DNA from: an uncultured Fidelibacterota bacterium
GTDB lineage: Bacteria; Fidelibacterota; Marinisomatia; Marinisomatales; UBA1611
NCBI GenBank assembly: GCA_913040915.1
Contig: CAJWHW010000021.1
Span: forward strand, 1-39,140
Direction: 5' to 3'
DNA length: 39,140 nt
Position 1 is the first letter of the stretch. Each line of letters starts with the position of its first letter. This document shows positions 14,523-36,977 of the stretch, in pieces. The position numbers were made by a program, and so were the translations under genes. Under the pieces are notes generated by a model. It saw nothing but the letters and a program-made list of their open reading frames with translations, had not been told where the DNA came from and searched no databases.

Positions 14523-15920
14523 TTATTGGCCTCTAAACTTAAATAATCCTTTATTCTTTTTAGCTTTTGATTTGTTTCGTTTTTTACTCTTCTTTATAGC
14601 TGTTTCTTCCATTGGATTTTGAGTTACCATATTTACTATGAGATCTTTAATAATTCTTCCATTTTCGTAAGATGTTTTACGAAGTTCTATCCCATTTTTA
14701 TCATAAAATATCCATAGTCCATTTCTTTTTCCATTCTTTAAAAGACCTCTTTCACGAACGTTACCATTGGGGTGATATCGAATTGTGAGTTCATGACCCG
14801 GTGGAGTCATACGTGCCACAATCTCTCTTCGCTGTGTAATTTTAGAAGTATCGACTTGCAGGTATGTTTGCCTATATAAATCACGTACAGTGTCCTTTAC
14901 TATTGCTGTATCAAAAGATAAGATTTTCAATGTGTCAAAAACTACTGACCTATATTGTAACTCTGGGCCAATAAACTCACCGCCTGTTTTTGGTCGATCC
15001 AATATTTTTTTGACCACATTAGTGGAATAAATTTTTTGAAGTTTTTTATACTCATCACTAGCCTTTGACCAGTCGCCATTAGCTTCGTAAACAGCTTTAT
15101 TTATCCATTCTTGAGCAGTACGATCACCTGTGTCACGAGCTCGGACAGCATCTTCCAATGTATTCCACCTTGGATATTTTGACCGTTGTGTTTCTGAAAT
15201 ATCGGGAGGTAGTCCGGTAGAATGAGTATGTATAGTTATAGTATCATTATTATATATGTATAAAGTATCATAAACTACGGTAGAATCAAATGCAAAGAGC
15301 CATAGTGAGTCACGAAAAATTGTAGTATCATACGCAAAGACCCAACTTGTATCATAAATAAATGTAGAATCATAGGCATAAGCCCAAACAGTATCATGTA
15401 CTACAGTCGTATCATAATTATAAATAAATGTAGTATCAAAGACTACAGTTGTATCATAATTAGTTTGGACTATTGTTGTAGTGTCATAGTTATTAATATA
15501 TATGCTATCAATTACAACTACTGTATCATAAACAGTGGTCGTAGCATTTGTATATACAAATGAAGTATCATAGACTGTTACAGAATCATAAATTGTCGTA
15601 TAGACAAATACTGTATCTGTAGGGCGATTCATTGTGAGAATATACAGTTCATCAAGCCTTGATTTCATTGCATCTAACTCTTCATTATATTTTAATTCGA
15701 TTCTCTCAAGTCTTGCCTTCTCTTGTACTTGCTCTAATGCACCCTCGAATTTTTTATTGTCTCGATTAAAAAGAGGTTTTGGTGCTTCTATAATCGATCC
15801 AGTTTGAGTACGATAAACTTTGCGTTTATTATTTTTAGACTCCGTTTGTGCAACGAGTGTAACAAAAAGTGCTACTATAATGACTATCAGTGATTTTCGC
15901 ATAATATTTGATAAAATCAT
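14523..15920 (-). CDS. secreted protein with periodic D(S/T) repeats and C-terminal MORN-variant repeats (start may be 15902)
   Basis: 465-aa ORF; signal peptide ending LVA-Q; short coiled coil; 17 D(S/T) units at aa 102-227; YHPNGNVRERG...NGKRNGLWIFYDKNG; Lys-rich tail. Confidence 0.85.
   Translation of the reverse strand: MILSNIMRKSLIVIIVALFVTLVAQTESKNNKRKVYRTQTGSIIEAPKPLFNRDNKKFEGALEQVQEKARLERIELKYNEELDAMKSRLDELYILTMNRPTDTVFVYTTIYDSVTVYDTSFVYTNATTTVYDTVVVIDSIYINNYDTTTIVQTNYDTTVVFDTTFIYNYDTTVVHDTVWAYAYDSTFIYDTSWVFAYDTTIFRDSLWLFAFDSTVVYDTLYIYNNDTITIHTHSTGLPPDISETQRSKYPRWNTLEDAVRARDTGDRTAQEWINKAVYEANGDWSKASDEYKKLQKIYSTNVVKKILDRPKTGGEFIGPELQYRSVVFDTLKILSFDTAIVKDTVRDLYRQTYLQVDTSKITQRREIVARMTPPGHELTIRYHPNGNVRERGLLKNGKRNGLWIFYDKNGIELRKTSYENGRIIKDLIVNMVTQNPMEETAIKKSKKRNKSKAKKNKGLFKFRGQ
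15231..15620 (-). repeat. degenerate coding repeat (x-D-[ST]-hydrophobic), 14-aa / 42-nt super-period
   Basis: Asp at aa 156,162,170,176,184,190,198,204,212,218,226 (strict 6/8 alternation); recurring GTATCATA/GAATCATA words on the + strand. Confidence 0.9.
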
Positions 15921-31581: not shown

Positions 31582-32409
31582 CTGCTTATTGTTTTTATAA
31601 TATTAATTTTATGTTCAACACCGACTTTTGGGCAGGTTAACCTTTATATCACCGAATTTCGGCCGTTCCCTGAAAAACTGAACCTTTTAGATTTAGAACC
31701 ATCCAAATTGAGTTGGTCAATTGCAAACCACTTTTTATTACTGGATGAAAAAAAAAGAGAATTGATAGCACTAGATCCATTTGGTGAAATGAATTTATCA
31801 AGCGGATTAGGGCAAAAGCGTTTTCATTTTGGCGATTTAGTTTGGATAGGTATGTCACCGCAGGGAATTAAAGTTGTAGATCGATTAGAAAATGAAATTA
31901 TTATTCTAGATTATCATTTAAATACCATACGTAATATTACATTGAATCAACGTATTTTCCCTGAAAACGTCGCTATAGACCCATGGGGAAGACTATTTCT
32001 TTATACTAGGACTTACAATTGTATCTATATTTTTGACAATGGAGAAATGTATCAGACACCATTTATAAATTTATCAAAGGAATTTTCACCAGCTTTTTGT
32101 ATGCAAAAGATGGAAATAAACCAGGATGGTGAGATTGCCATATTGGAATGCAATGGGAGTATTCATTTTTTTAATAGAAATGGACAAATAAAAATTTCAT
32201 TAACAGCACTGTTAGAAGATCCAACTTTTTTAATCCCTTTACGTGATGATTGGTTTATTTTTAATCAAAATGGAGTTGGTATTTCAATTCAAACACGGGA
32301 TCATGTAATAATACCAGTTGCAAGCCTTCCTATAGTAGATATGGTATCCTTAAATCGTTCCATTGCAGTTTTATCAAAGGATCATATACTAGTTCTTGAT
32401 GTCAAATAA
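31582..32409 (+). CDS. secreted beta-propeller (NHL/6-bladed-like) protein; probable CTG start
   Basis: Frame open from 31537, with signal peptide LLIVFIILILCSTPTFG-Q upstream of the track's TTG 31708; blade-like segments IKVVDRLENEIIILD, VAIDPWGRLFLY, MEINQDGEIAIL. Confidence 0.7.
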   Translation: MLIVFIILILCSTPTFGQVNLYITEFRPFPEKLNLLDLEPSKLSWSIANHFLLLDEKKRELIALDPFGEMNLSSGLGQKRFHFGDLVWIGMSPQGIKVVDRLENEIIILDYHLNTIRNITLNQRIFPENVAIDPWGRLFLYTRTYNCIYIFDNGEMYQTPFINLSKEFSPAFCMQKMEINQDGEIAILECNGSIHFFNRNGQIKISLTALLEDPTFLIPLRDDWFIFNQNGVGISIQTRDHVIIPVASLPIVDMVSLNRSIAVLSKDHILVLDVK

Positions 32410-35400
32410 AATTAGGCTGCTTTATGGTCTTTATTTATTATGTAATTGTGCAATTATCGCACAAGTATCTTCTACAGTAGATACTATTTTTCAGGTTGGG
32501 TTAGGAAATACGATTCAATTAAGTAATAGTTTTATACTAGAATCATCTGTTAAAGTAGATTATTTAGGTGAATCATTAACTATTGAATCGATTCAATCTA
32601 TTGAAGGAATAATAACACTTTCTGATTCCAAATATGATTTTCCCATTGTTGTCCACTACGATTATTTAAATAAAGGTTTACCAATTTCTGTTGGTCCAAA
32701 GTGGAAAACCTTACCTGCTCTTGGTACAAAAATATCTCAATTAAACCAAGAAATATCATCATATGCTAAACCTAAAAGTAATACCGAGTCCAATCTCTTT
32801 TCATCAGGGAATATCTATCGCCAATTAACTATTTCACCACTAGGAGGCTCTGATTTTACTGGCGGCCTTCAAATGCAGTTGAATGGGAAGTTGACAGAAA
32901 ATTTGATTGTCAGTGGTGTACTAACAGATCAGGAGTTAACAATACAACCTGAAGGTACTACAAGAGAATTGGAAGAAATAGACCTAGTTTATCTTAAAGT
33001 AACTCATCCTAATTATACAGTAGATGCAGGTGATATATTTTTTGAAAATAATTTAAATAAAAAACAAAAAATTGATAGAAAGTTGATAGGTTTAAAAAAT
33101 AGTTTTAATATAAATAACTGGACTGGTGCTGGAGTGTTTGCTAATTCAAAAGGGAATTTTAAATCCATGGAATTTAAAGGCAGGGATGCTGATCAAGGGC
33201 CGTATCAGTTAACTGGTAAAGACGGGAACAGGGACATTATAATTCTATCTGGTACTGAGAAAGTTTGGGTGAATGGTAAAAATTGTATAAGAGGTCAAAA
33301 TCAAGATTATATTATTGATTATTCATCAGGTGAAATTCAGTTTACACCTAAAACCTTAATCCATTCTGATTCTGATATATTTGTGGAATACCAATATTCC
33401 AATTTTGAATATCAAAAAGAATTTATTGGCGGATCCATGAAAAAGGTCTTTGCTCATAAAGGCTTATTTAGCTATGGATATTTTAGAGAATCTGATGAAT
33501 TCAATGGCATGAATTGGAGAGGTGATATAAAGGATTCGTTGAATGTATTAGATGCAGGAAAAATAAAGATAAGTACGGCAGTTTTAAATGATAAAGGTGA
33601 TTATATCAAAAAGAATAATATTTTTGAATATTATCCAGAAAATATATCATCTGATTCATTGAGATATACAGTAACCTTTGAGTATAATGAGAATGGAAAA
33701 TATGCTCGGAAAATTTCAAATAAAGGGCGAATCTATTATAAATATATTACCGGTGACATAAGTCAAGAAAGTGATCAGGATAGATACAGTCCATTTCGAC
33801 TAATTTATGCTCCACAAACACATAGTCTCGGATATTTTGGTGGAGAGTATAAAATAGGAAACAATTTGAAAATTTCTTCTAATTTGACCACTTCTATGGT
33901 TAATAGAAACAGTTACAACTTATCAGGGAATACTTCAAATGGCTCCGCATCTATGGTTGAGATTATTCTAGATTCATTAGAATTCAGTAGAGGTTTATTT
34001 TATCTTTCAATTTCCGATTGGACAAGAGGTTTGAATTATTATGCGCTTGGTCAGGAAAATGATGTACAGCAAAGAAGATTTTGGAACTTAGATTCTTCAT
34101 TGAATAATAATATTAAAGAATCAAAGGTGAATTCTACATTGATCATTCATGAATATGGCACCACTAATATTGAAATTGCCCAATTGAACCATCAAAATTT
34201 CACTCATTCCAGGTTCTTTTTTAATCAGGATATCACTCATTTAAAATTTACCAATACATACATAAATCATAGATCAATTCGAAAACCAAAAGGAATATTT
34301 AATCGATCTGATGGAAGATTTCAAATACATTTCAAGGAATTTTCACCATTTATAAAGGTATTATCAGAAACAGAATCAAATGTAGCTCGTTTTCGTAATG
34401 TGGGCAGTGGAATTCAATTCCAAAATTTGAAGACACATATCGAAACTGGAGTTGATTTGCGAAAAGATGAGACATTTAATGATTCAACGACTTGGGAATC
34501 TATTTCTGAAGATTTTATTGGATTTATTGATATGAAAGCACAGTTTCCATCAGGGTGGTCACAGAATATAATATATAAAAAACGGATTAAATCTTTTGAA
34601 TCTAGTTTACCATCCCTTGATTATTCTTTGGCAACACTAGCTTTTAGTTATAATCGTGGACTCCATCCACTTCAATGGGAACTCCAAATTAACAAAGAGG
34701 AATCCCTTTCTGAAGAAAGAGCTGTTGTTTATGATTCTGTAGGTACAGGTTTAGGACAGTATAGATATGATCCAGTTTTTAATACATATGTATCAGACCC
34801 CAATGGTGCCTTTATTGCACATTCCATTTCAACCGGAAAACGTGATCCAACATCGAACTTTGAAGGGTCACAGCGTTTTATGTTTGATTTTGGAAAAATC
34901 CCTGGTTTACCAAAACTTTTAATTCGAAGTCATAGTCGTCTAGATTATAGTGCACTTAAATCAGATATCAATAAAATATTAAGGCCTGAAATAACAGATT
35001 CGACAATTTCTCGTTCAAGATTAGAATCGAGACTAGAGATTATATATTCTGGGAAAAGAAGATTACTCAGTTGGATAGAAAATCAACATGAACTAAATGG
35101 TCTTGATCCTCGAGGAAATGATTTACATAAAACAAGTTCATTTGGTCTTGATATTGAACAATCTATCTCAAATATTTTGCAGGTTAAACTAAATACAAAG
35201 CATCGTACAAAAATAATTAAATCAACGGTTTCTGATTTGAGAAATCGAAAGATGGCTGGCTGGTGGAATGAAACCCGATTCCATGTATCGATAAATTCGT
35301 CATTTGATTTTGATATTGGTTTCTTGACAGGTTTTGATTCAGGTGAACAGCAAGAAAATTCTTTTACTGGTCATGCTCTTGGCTATTTAGTAAATGGTCG

Positions 35401-35653
35401 GTTTTTTTTCAAAAAAACTGGACGGTTGCAGACAAGTATGAGTTGGATAAATGCATTTGAAAAGAATTATGGATATAAGTTACCACCTGAAGCACTGAAT
35501 GGATATCCTCTTGGTAAAAGTTTTCGTTCCAATACACGCCTACAGTATTTCATTAACCGATCAATCTCAATGATTTTCACCTTAGATACAATAAATGATA
35601 TTCGTTACAAAAATTTTATCACATTTCAGGGAGAGATTCGTGCGCATTTTTAG
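32399..35653 (+). CDS. large putative outer-membrane beta-barrel protein (~1084 aa) with SprA-like internal modules
   Basis: Signal peptide; many amphipathic strands; C-terminal beta-signal FQGEIRAHF; segments GLQMQLNGKL...LTDQ...IQPEG and GTEKVWVNG...DYIIDYSSGEIQF. Confidence 0.75.
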   Translation: MSNKIRLLYGLYLLCNCAIIAQVSSTVDTIFQVGLGNTIQLSNSFILESSVKVDYLGESLTIESIQSIEGIITLSDSKYDFPIVVHYDYLNKGLPISVGPKWKTLPALGTKISQLNQEISSYAKPKSNTESNLFSSGNIYRQLTISPLGGSDFTGGLQMQLNGKLTENLIVSGVLTDQELTIQPEGTTRELEEIDLVYLKVTHPNYTVDAGDIFFENNLNKKQKIDRKLIGLKNSFNINNWTGAGVFANSKGNFKSMEFKGRDADQGPYQLTGKDGNRDIIILSGTEKVWVNGKNCIRGQNQDYIIDYSSGEIQFTPKTLIHSDSDIFVEYQYSNFEYQKEFIGGSMKKVFAHKGLFSYGYFRESDEFNGMNWRGDIKDSLNVLDAGKIKISTAVLNDKGDYIKKNNIFEYYPENISSDSLRYTVTFEYNENGKYARKISNKGRIYYKYITGDISQESDQDRYSPFRLIYAPQTHSLGYFGGEYKIGNNLKISSNLTTSMVNRNSYNLSGNTSNGSASMVEIILDSLEFSRGLFYLSISDWTRGLNYYALGQENDVQQRRFWNLDSSLNNNIKESKVNSTLIIHEYGTTNIEIAQLNHQNFTHSRFFFNQDITHLKFTNTYINHRSIRKPKGIFNRSDGRFQIHFKEFSPFIKVLSETESNVARFRNVGSGIQFQNLKTHIETGVDLRKDETFNDSTTWESISEDFIGFIDMKAQFPSGWSQNIIYKKRIKSFESSLPSLDYSLATLAFSYNRGLHPLQWELQINKEESLSEERAVVYDSVGTGLGQYRYDPVFNTYVSDPNGAFIAHSISTGKRDPTSNFEGSQRFMFDFGKIPGLPKLLIRSHSRLDYSALKSDINKILRPEITDSTISRSRLESRLEIIYSGKRRLLSWIENQHELNGLDPRGNDLHKTSSFGLDIEQSISNILQVKLNTKHRTKIIKSTVSDLRNRKMAGWWNETRFHVSINSSFDFDIGFLTGFDSGEQQENSFTGHALGYLVNGRFFFKKTGRLQTSMSWINAFEKNYGYKLPPEALNGYPLGKSFRSNTRLQYFINRSISMIFTLDTINDIRYKNFITFQGEIRAHF

Positions 35654-36977
35654 TAATTTAATTTATTTAGCTTTTGGGATCCTTATTGGGCAAGATCCCA
35701 TGATCAAAATTCCATCTATTGAATCAAGTGTTATTTTAGACTCTCTCTATAATAAAAAAGAATATGATTCAAACATAGCATTGGTTTATAACCTAAAAAG
35801 ATTTCAACTAAACCCTGACTATTCAATCTATTCTATTGTTGAAAATAGAAAATACATAGATTCATTAGTGATAGATGGTGTTATAAATATCCAAAATCCG
35901 ATTATGGATCGAATTATAGCTCCATTAAAATCTAACCCTATAAATAATGGATTTGAGAATATTAAGAAAAACTGGGTTCAACGTTATTACTTTTTTAGGC
36001 AAGAACCTTTAATTGAACTTGGTCTAATTAATGAAAGCCATTTAGGGGCTATTCTTCAATTTTCACCAGAATTTGAAAGTTATTTTTCTGGAATATTTGG
36101 ACTAAGTCAACAAGGAAAGAATTGGTATCTGAATGGAGAAATTGATCTTCATTTTGAAAATTTGATTCAAACGGCCGGTATTTTAGATTTATATTGGAAG
36201 CGAACTGATTCATTATCTCAGAGTATTCAATTTGAAATACTTGAGCCACATCCGTTCGGATGGGAATTAGGTACTCACATTCGATATCACCATGAAATTA
36301 TGAGTGGTTTGTATACAATTATTAAAACAGAATCAATGTTACGGCTATATTCCCCATGGGTAGGGCATTTAAATTTGGGTTTCATATCTGGAAGGACACA
36401 TCCCACAAAAATTGGCCAAATCAGCGGTTTTGAAAAGGTATGGTTTAAAGCTCTCTCAATTTCAAAGAATACAGATACAAGAAACCAACGTTATCTACCA
36501 ACTAAAGGGAAAAAAATCAATATTAGCATTGATGCAGGTCTTCAGAAAAAGACTGAATACATTGAAACAGAATTTGATATTCAGCAGTATTTTGAAATTT
36601 GGAAAAAATTTAATGTAATGTTGCGGTTGCAGGGGAAGGGGCTACATGATTTTAAAGTAATAATTCCTAAATCAAGGTATATGATCTATGGAGGTAGTGG
36701 TACTTTACGAGGGTTCAAAGAACAAAACTTTTCCGCACCACAATTTCAAGTGGGCACAATTGAACTAAATTATAAACCGGTTAATATGATACAAACAGGC
36801 ATTTTTATAGATTGTGGTACAGATAAATTGAACTTATTTAATAATAATAATGTTGGTTATGGTTTAGGCTTTACACAAGTATCAAATAAAACCATAATTA
36901 AAATTCAATATGCAATGGCAAAAGGCCAAAATTTCAGTGATGGAAAGCTACATATTAATTGGATTTCTCGTATATAA
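35640..36977 (+). CDS. Omp85 (BamA/TamA-like) outer membrane protein with reduced periplasmic region
   Basis: GTG start after GGAGAG; signal peptide; DTRN...PTKG, GG..TLRGF (loop-6 VRGF-like), VGYGLG, terminal strand KLHINWISRI. Confidence 0.8.
   Translation: MRIFSNLIYLAFGILIGQDPMIKIPSIESSVILDSLYNKKEYDSNIALVYNLKRFQLNPDYSIYSIVENRKYIDSLVIDGVINIQNPIMDRIIAPLKSNPINNGFENIKKNWVQRYYFFRQEPLIELGLINESHLGAILQFSPEFESYFSGIFGLSQQGKNWYLNGEIDLHFENLIQTAGILDLYWKRTDSLSQSIQFEILEPHPFGWELGTHIRYHHEIMSGLYTIIKTESMLRLYSPWVGHLNLGFISGRTHPTKIGQISGFEKVWFKALSISKNTDTRNQRYLPTKGKKINISIDAGLQKKTEYIETEFDIQQYFEIWKKFNVMLRLQGKGLHDFKVIIPKSRYMIYGGSGTLRGFKEQNFSAPQFQVGTIELNYKPVNMIQTGIFIDCGTDKLNLFNNNNVGYGLGFTQVSNKTIIKIQYAMAKGQNFSDGKLHINWISRI

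Follow-up and report, generated by a model that had tools for sequence, protein, structure and literature searches.

The window, by which we mean the whole 39,140-nucleotide stretch analysed, carries a gene for a predicted exported protein (P0001) that is the sole minus-strand gene between uvrC and a glyoxalase-family gene, presumably encoding methylmalonyl-CoA epimerase. The features of the gene and its product are collected in Table 1. The second methionine codon (15902) may be the true start. At the predicted signal-peptide site, 59 of 60 aligned family sequences have Ala, Ser or Gly at -1 and 58 of 60 have Gln at +1. Throughout the genome, a small residue followed by Gln occurs within the first 36 residues of 112/324 predicted exported proteins and 103/710 cytosolic ones by a crude count, an excess hinting at a Bacteroidota-like Q-rule. 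The basic motif at residues 31-52 has no significant paralog within its own genome, the coiled coil keeps its heptad core (Y78, L82, L/M85, V/L89 and L92), the helical domain at residues 245-312 has no Pfam match, and Foldseek matches of the MORN-variant region to MORN proteins were weak (E about 0.2-2). A promoter scan returned 14 sites against 8.9 expected, an uninformative result. RNA-library contigs fell inside the open reading frame (14589-15873) in 4 runs from 4 studies, the runs having been picked using this same stretch, and we regard them as a weak sign of expression. Elsewhere in the window, a plus-strand ORF of 1,085 amino acids (32396-35653) without a Pfam match at E<=0.1 sits directly upstream of two genes, one with an Omp85 domain (35595-36977) and one with DUF4837.

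Table 1. Features of the P0001 gene and its product, in window coordinates.
Feature	Residues	Positions	Strand	Basis
Exported-protein gene P0001	465 aa	14523..15920	-	ORF call
Predicted Sec/SPI signal peptide, end L-x-A↓Q	1-24	15849..15920	-	hydrophobic; predicted cleavage site
Conserved basic N-terminal motif	31-52	15765..15830	-	mean column conservation 0.85
Predicted coiled coil, running directly into the repeat	55-99	15624..15758	-	AF2 helix 61-97
Main repeat, 17 evenly spaced D-(S/T)-hydrophobic units	102-231	15228..15617	-	motif count and family alignment
Small helical domain	245-312	14985..15188	-	pLDDT about 85-90 over residues 251-290; conservation 0.82
Second short D-T tract (D329, D337, D343, D357; spacings 8, 6, 14)	323-365	14826..14954	-	D-T near-invariant in 60 sequences
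MORN-variant repeats	372-430	14631..14807	-	Pfam MORN_2 (PF07661) E 0.00098, below cut-off; pLDDT 87-92
Lys-rich variable tail		14526..14630	-	in some relatives the chain continues into TonB_C and further domains

The main repeat is built from 17 D-(S/T) units at residues 102-226 (15617-15240), spaced by 10, 6, 14, 6, 8, 10, 6, 8, 6, 8, 6, 8, 6, 8, 6 and 8 residues; all 16 spacings are even. Each of the 17 Asp residues between positions 102 and 231 is followed by Ser or Thr, and this span contains no Gly and no Pro. On the face that carries Asp the remaining residues are V, I, A, T, N and L, and the Ser/Thr residues lie on the opposite face together with Y, F and W. According to the available portions of two studies (PMC12871550, PMC10897501), D-(S/T)-(A/I/L/M/V/T) is the motif of the general protein O-glycosylation of Bacteroidota. 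Fifteen of the 17 units match this sequon, the other two being D-T-S, and the extended motif D[ST][AILMVTSCGF] takes in 17/17 units and all 22 D-(S/T) dipeptides of the whole protein. In 200,000 composition-preserving shuffles no sequence reached 17 units (best 14), and among the 1,650 ORFs of the genome the tract has the top sequon density. Our recount thus agrees with the initial annotation, which had listed 17 evenly spaced units, 15 of them strict sequons, in a tract devoid of Gly and Pro. It had also described the DNA repeats as diverged, and this holds: Tandem Repeats Finder has no entry at 15231-15620 and five 42-nt units are pairwise 48-74% identical, so that the repeat DNA is diverged and is no recent tandem array. 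The repeat is a real and strongly selected feature. The spacings of the second tract mirror those from D118 to D146 in the main tract (15483-15569), the residue numbers of all four Asp pairs summing to 475. This mirrored spacing could mark an antiparallel register; covariation gave no support for it in a noise-dominated analysis of low depth (136 unique sequences, Neff about 33 at 80%).

A homolog search with P0001 returned 75 matches: 73 members of the family, and two that have the repeat alone in common. The members of the family cluster carry Marinimicrobia/Fidelibacterota labels, and the whole protein matched unnamed Fidelibacterota clusters alone in the ESM Atlas. Among other genomes of the same taxonomic family, a profile of the tract matched 14 of 25; among the genomes searched from other families of the phylum, it matched 0 of 275. 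At about 55% identity, 63 of the 73 homologs retain the exact 17-unit spacing. The ten that deviate have a two-residue insertion (1), 14 units (2), 21 units (2) or one Asp replaced (3), or are N-terminal fragments (2). Repeat number, which the initial annotation had singled out as a feature to compare among relatives, is therefore largely fixed, and the deviating homologs, those with 14, 16 and 21 units included, keep even parity throughout the tract. Conservation of the tract (0.84) is on par with that of the folded domains of the family; Trp is invariant at 14-residue intervals, and Gly and Pro are absent. A uvrC-like ORF flanks the gene in 18 of 20 loci (the motif test being positive in 16) and a glyoxalase-family gene adjoins it in 17 of 20. 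The retention of these neighbours indicates a vertically kept chromosomal gene. Neither tblastn of phage records nor a pattern scan of viral contigs found a relative of the family.

Some relatives extend through a TonB_C domain to 1,400 residues, with extra MORN repeats. TonB_C (PF03544) is present in four relatives (P0065, P0066, P0068 and P0077) and absent from P0001. In two long relatives of 1,403-1,445 residues (L021:2986-7323 and L023:1191-5402) the MORN repeats are followed by TonB_C, then an unnamed domain present in duplicate, then another MORN array; both are encoded upstream of genes that we take to be moaA/moaC-like and have no uvrC neighbour. P0001 resembles TonB/MORN periplasmic proteins in its MORN-variant repeats and in the TonB_C domain of these relatives, some of which their sources name 'TonB family protein'. 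It differs in having no TonB_C of its own, in an N-terminus that is cleavable and not anchoring, and in a sequon-bearing beta tract where TonB has a Pro-rich spacer. With TonB_C absent and no uncleaved membrane anchor, we set aside the possibility that P0001 is itself a TonB.

The tract matches nothing in Pfam or NCBIfam, a PDB sequence search gave 0 matches at E<=10, and the unnamed phrog_5070 matches it weakly (E 0.0011). No description of the repeat appeared in the literature searched, with subscription journals outside its coverage. The suggestion that the repeat is new relative to described families thus stands, and what the initial annotation overlooked is that it is a module common to many unrelated exported proteins. 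Searching 1.84 billion representatives with a profile of the tract, we obtained 33 matches at E<=0.001, seven of which were family members or fragments. The set used for statistics holds 23 proteins: P0084, P0088 and P0097 (other repeats or noise) and the near-duplicate P0105 were left out, P0102 and P0094 were kept, and P0076 was added. It includes type IX secretion system (T9SS) cargo with LamG, LRR, PKD or InlB-B heads, a Fibrobacterota cluster (Hallerella), lipoproteins and a fibre-like protein. In this set 430/471 spacings are even and Pro favours the Thr face by 23:1, figures biased towards the P0001 tract, whose profile found the set. Because of this bias, we assembled a second set using DNA patterns in which the third residue was unconstrained (37 metagenome and 19 viral loci). 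After removal of six family members and two loci without an open match it comprised 42 distinct ORFs, a few low-complexity or probable off-frame matches being retained. Spacings beyond the searched pattern were even in 207/230 cases, and the Thr face exceeded the Asp face by 29:0 for Pro and by 167:12 for aromatic residues. This sorting, with aliphatics on the Asp face and aromatics, Pro and acceptor Thr opposite, points to beta structure. By contrast, ordinary sequons in the exported proteins of this genome have no parity (35/89 spacings even), so parity belongs to the repeat module. Unrelated carriers mix spacings of 6, 8, 10 and 12, or use 6 alone or 8 alone. The P0001 tract thus exemplifies a repeat module, as yet unnamed, of exported FCB-type proteins.

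Two further kinds of D-T-rich sequence came to light. Three other exported ORFs are rich in strict sequons and have no strict parity: one on C30 (start 22672, minus strand) with 25, one on C14 (start 45896, minus) with 49 and one on C26 (start 14035, minus) with 31. In a DNA scan of the genome collection, 75 of 80 loci among the matches listed were low-complexity (Asp-Thr)n and none among them was of the beta type. These long, hydrophobe-free tracts (L026-L105) are a different type of repeat and very common in Myxococcota/Deltaproteobacteria records.

The carriers fall into several contexts. In 9 of 14 T9SS cargo proteins examined the tract ends 83-100 residues before the C-terminus; P0001 has no Por_Secre_tail match and is not among the 22 proteins of its genome with a CTD-like C-terminal motif. 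One carrier has a tail-fibre motif, and one is labelled Patescibacteria at NCBI. A MAT-like fibre carrier matches Bdello_MAT_N (E 5.9e-5, below cut-off) and Gp53-like_C (E 0.04), both weakly, and the unrelated carrier P0107 weakly matches Gp5_trimer_C over its own tract (E 0.043). Four exported, fibre-like proteins (P0081, P0086, L283:2-868 and L306:911-2098) combine a MAT-like N-terminal domain with the 6/8 repeat and with C-terminal tips that vary. Among the 19 viral loci, twelve code for a protein with a lipobox, the tract, a helix and a membrane segment at the C-terminus; L319 and L330, which were inspected, have this unimolecular-spanin (u-spanin) layout with an M15 peptidase alongside. 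These u-spanin-like phage proteins (L317-L321, L324, L328-L331, L334 and L335; for example L319:2354-2800 and L330:2276-2800) have a conserved Cys immediately before the D-T tract and no Pfam or PHROG name, and are candidates for host-glycosylated lysis proteins. As in the unimolecular spanin T1 gp11, to judge by the available part of its description (PMC6139136), they combine a lipobox, a beta-rich periplasmic part and a C-terminal membrane segment. P0001, in contrast, is chromosomal, lacks both anchors and is no spanin, and it has the repeat module alone in common with them. A u-spanin identity for P0001 was accordingly rejected: it has no lipobox and no C-terminal membrane segment in a lysis cassette.

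Several observations bear on O-glycosylation of the module. For Bacteroidota, R, H, K, W and Y are reported never to occupy the third position of the sequon (PMC10897501, available portion), and PMC12871550, in the portion available, describes near-complete modification of such sites by a system whose function and transferase are still undiscovered. We compared the third residue of the units with other positions on the same face. It was A, I, L, M, V or T in 985/1011 units of the P0001 family, against 81% at the other positions, and in 404/425 units of the 23-protein set, against 66%. In the latter set R, H, K, W or Y was third in 0/425 units and present at 142/756 (19%) of the other same-face positions. 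In the set collected without regard to the third residue, the corresponding counts were 271/312 and 131/198 for A, I, L, M, V or T, and 7 of the 312 units had R, H, K, W or Y third. At the level of the genome, the observed/expected ratio of the sequon was 1.46 (95% bootstrap 1.30-1.63) in 323 proteins predicted to be exported by a crude hydropathy rule and 1.08 in 710 cytosolic ones, and control motifs (Glu, Asn and reversed) gave 0.89-1.04. Small comparison samples (27-73 proteins) gave no enrichment in two other Marinimicrobia families (0.86 and 0.85 for 49 and 36 predicted exported proteins), 1.11 and 1.18, with intervals spanning 1, in two same-family genomes without a tract match, 1.25 (0.87-1.72) in Shewanella and 0.75 in an alphaproteobacterium; co-occurrence of the gene and the enrichment rests on one positive genome.

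P0001 resembles the Bacteroidota O-glycosylation substrates in motif, third-residue preference, export to a predicted non-cytoplasmic location and genome-wide enrichment of the motif among exported proteins. It differs from them in its Marinimicrobia (Fidelibacterota) host, in having 17 sites within 130 residues in strict even register, and in that no glycan locus is linked to metG: when the N-termini of ORFs beside metG were read in this 85%-complete genome, we found no flippase/glycosyltransferase cluster of the metG-wzx-glycosyltransferase (LFG) kind. The literature searched, with subscription journals outside it, holds no report of O-glycosylation in Marinimicrobia, and Fig. 2A of PMC12871550, a partly available source that plots enrichment across GTDB genera, may include them.

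Structure prediction was consistent with beta strands in the tract. The AF2 monomer models it as a single-chain meander of 14-residue period at low confidence (pLDDT about 28-61), and a single-sequence AF2 model of the fibre-like P0081 had a mean pLDDT of 41. A complex prediction with three copies of residues 60-240 scored 0.02, which counts neither way on oligomerisation. With the P0001 model, its tract at low confidence, Foldseek gave no match at E<=0.001 and the best VIA-align hit (Z 4.9) covered mostly the long helix. The known structures that come closest are triple-stranded beta-helices, of which the repeat in T4 gp5 is VxGxxxxx. Like the T4 gp5 C-terminal domain (Gp5_trimer_C) and the Bdellovibrio MAT fibres as described in the available part of PMC10769870, P0001 has repeats that would form short strands of even length, preceded by a predicted coiled coil. 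It departs from them in that the tract has no Gly-containing corner motif and no match to them in Pfam, NCBIfam or PDB sequences; a trimer is what we propose here. We favour a parallel, intertwined oligomer because the coiled coil enters the tract directly, units of 6, 8, 10 and 12 mix freely, and some carriers are fibre-like. The confinement of Pro to one face and the span that a spanin needs speak for a ribbon; with Pro on the Thr face, a two-stranded ribbon is the better fit than a stacked beta-helix.

We favour, at a probability of roughly 0.55, a reading in which the tract is a two-faced beta-strand rod that serves as a periplasmic spacer and in which a Bacteroidota-type system likely O-glycosylates the Ser/Thr of every unit. 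Counting in its favour are the parity and fixed length, the face sorting, the third-residue rule, the genome-wide enrichment, the contexts of the carriers and the AF2 beta call. Counting against it are the low-confidence single-chain meander, the metG neighbourhood, the two unenriched families, the Patescibacteria carrier, the ratios in the same-family genomes and Shewanella, the 7/312 exceptions at the third position, the bias of the profile-found set and the crude export classifier. In the proposed sequence of events, P0001 would be exported by Sec and cleaved at L-x-A↓Q, and glycans would then be transferred in the periplasm onto each D-(S/T)-hydrophobic site. The coiled coil would hold the chains parallel as they wound around one another into a beta rod, most likely trimeric. 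Its interior would contain V, I, T, A and N, its corners Asp, and its exterior aromatics and glycan-bearing Thr, so placed that the sugars could have aromatics stacked against them. Such a rod would keep the N-terminal basic motif at a set distance from the C-terminal helical and MORN interaction domains, and in relatives also from TonB_C. The periplasm is the likeliest location, since P0001 has neither a T9SS tail nor a lipobox and relatives are fused to TonB_C. The initial annotation had weighed a beta fibre against a glycan-coated surface stalk; parity, face sorting, the third residue and the enrichment support both indirectly, neither directly, and the two are probably one thing, although with a cleavable signal peptide and the features just named 'surface' is doubtful.

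Three other explanations deserve weight. The glycosylated tract might fold as one chain by itself or as an antiparallel pair, giving a single-layer sheet in a 14-residue beta-meander or a long two-stranded ribbon. The AF2 monomer strands, with their 14-residue period and turns at Y-D-T, speak for this, as do the restriction of Pro to one face, the palindromic 6/8 spacing and its mirror image in the second tract; by a general estimate, the ~115 residues that u-spanin-like proteins place in the periplasm would also be better matched by an extended ribbon than by a compact helix. We nevertheless consider it unlikely, though the strongest of the three: the model is of low confidence, the mirrored register drew no covariation signal at low depth, the mixed or uniform spacings of other carriers would be hard for a regular meander, and the coiled coil and fibre-like contexts point to parallel chains. 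Slightly less probable still is an unglycosylated Asp-Thr beta-helix, with D-(S/T) corners or ladders that possibly bind Ca or mineral, in which the sequon match is a side effect. Beta-branched residues at +2 are indeed expected on a core face, as the 81% background illustrates, and the lack of a glycan locus adjacent to metG, the unenriched Marinimicrobia families and the Patescibacteria label fit such a structure. However, the exclusion of R, H, K, W and Y is limited to +2 among same-face positions, isolated sequons are enriched in predicted exported and not cytosolic proteins of this genome, and many carriers are T9SS cargo or otherwise exported, a class of site that Bacteroidota modify nearly fully (PMC12871550, available portion).

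For the ice, mineral or Ca binding raised by the initial annotation we found nothing in support. Large aromatics are interspersed along the Thr face, which, set against what is generally known of such surfaces, forms no flat Thr array; ice or mineral binding was therefore set aside. The tract might, lastly, be a mucin-like bottle-brush, disordered and densely glycosylated, with no regular secondary structure. The low AF2 confidence over the tract speaks for it, as does the placement of the module immediately ahead of the T9SS tail in many cargo proteins, which suits a flexible stalk. We think this improbable, since a family tract that lacks Gly and Pro, keeps strict parity and a fixed length, sorts its aromatics to one face and has an invariant Trp at 14-residue intervals is unlike a disordered linker.

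Beyond P0001, the glycosylated rod might be a portable structural module, previously unnamed, in the FCB envelope: a beta rod that depends on its glycans, consists entirely of sequons in even register and acts as a molecular ruler in adaptors of the periplasm, adhesins of the T9SS, trimeric fibres and spanins of phages; we advance this broader proposal tentatively and think it somewhat less likely than not. T9SS adhesins and u-spanin-like proteins of phages both carry the repeat module, which is missing from Pfam and NCBIfam, and its presence in the latter implies that hosts may glycosylate some phage lysis proteins. With every unit a sequon in strict register, the module offers a direct test of whether Bacteroidota O-glycans are structural, folding or stiffening a beta rod, and the P0001 tract provides a 17-site reporter substrate for the transferase search. 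If the reading is true, Bacteroidota-type O-glycosylation operates, patchily, in part of Marinimicrobia, an abundant uncultured marine lineage.
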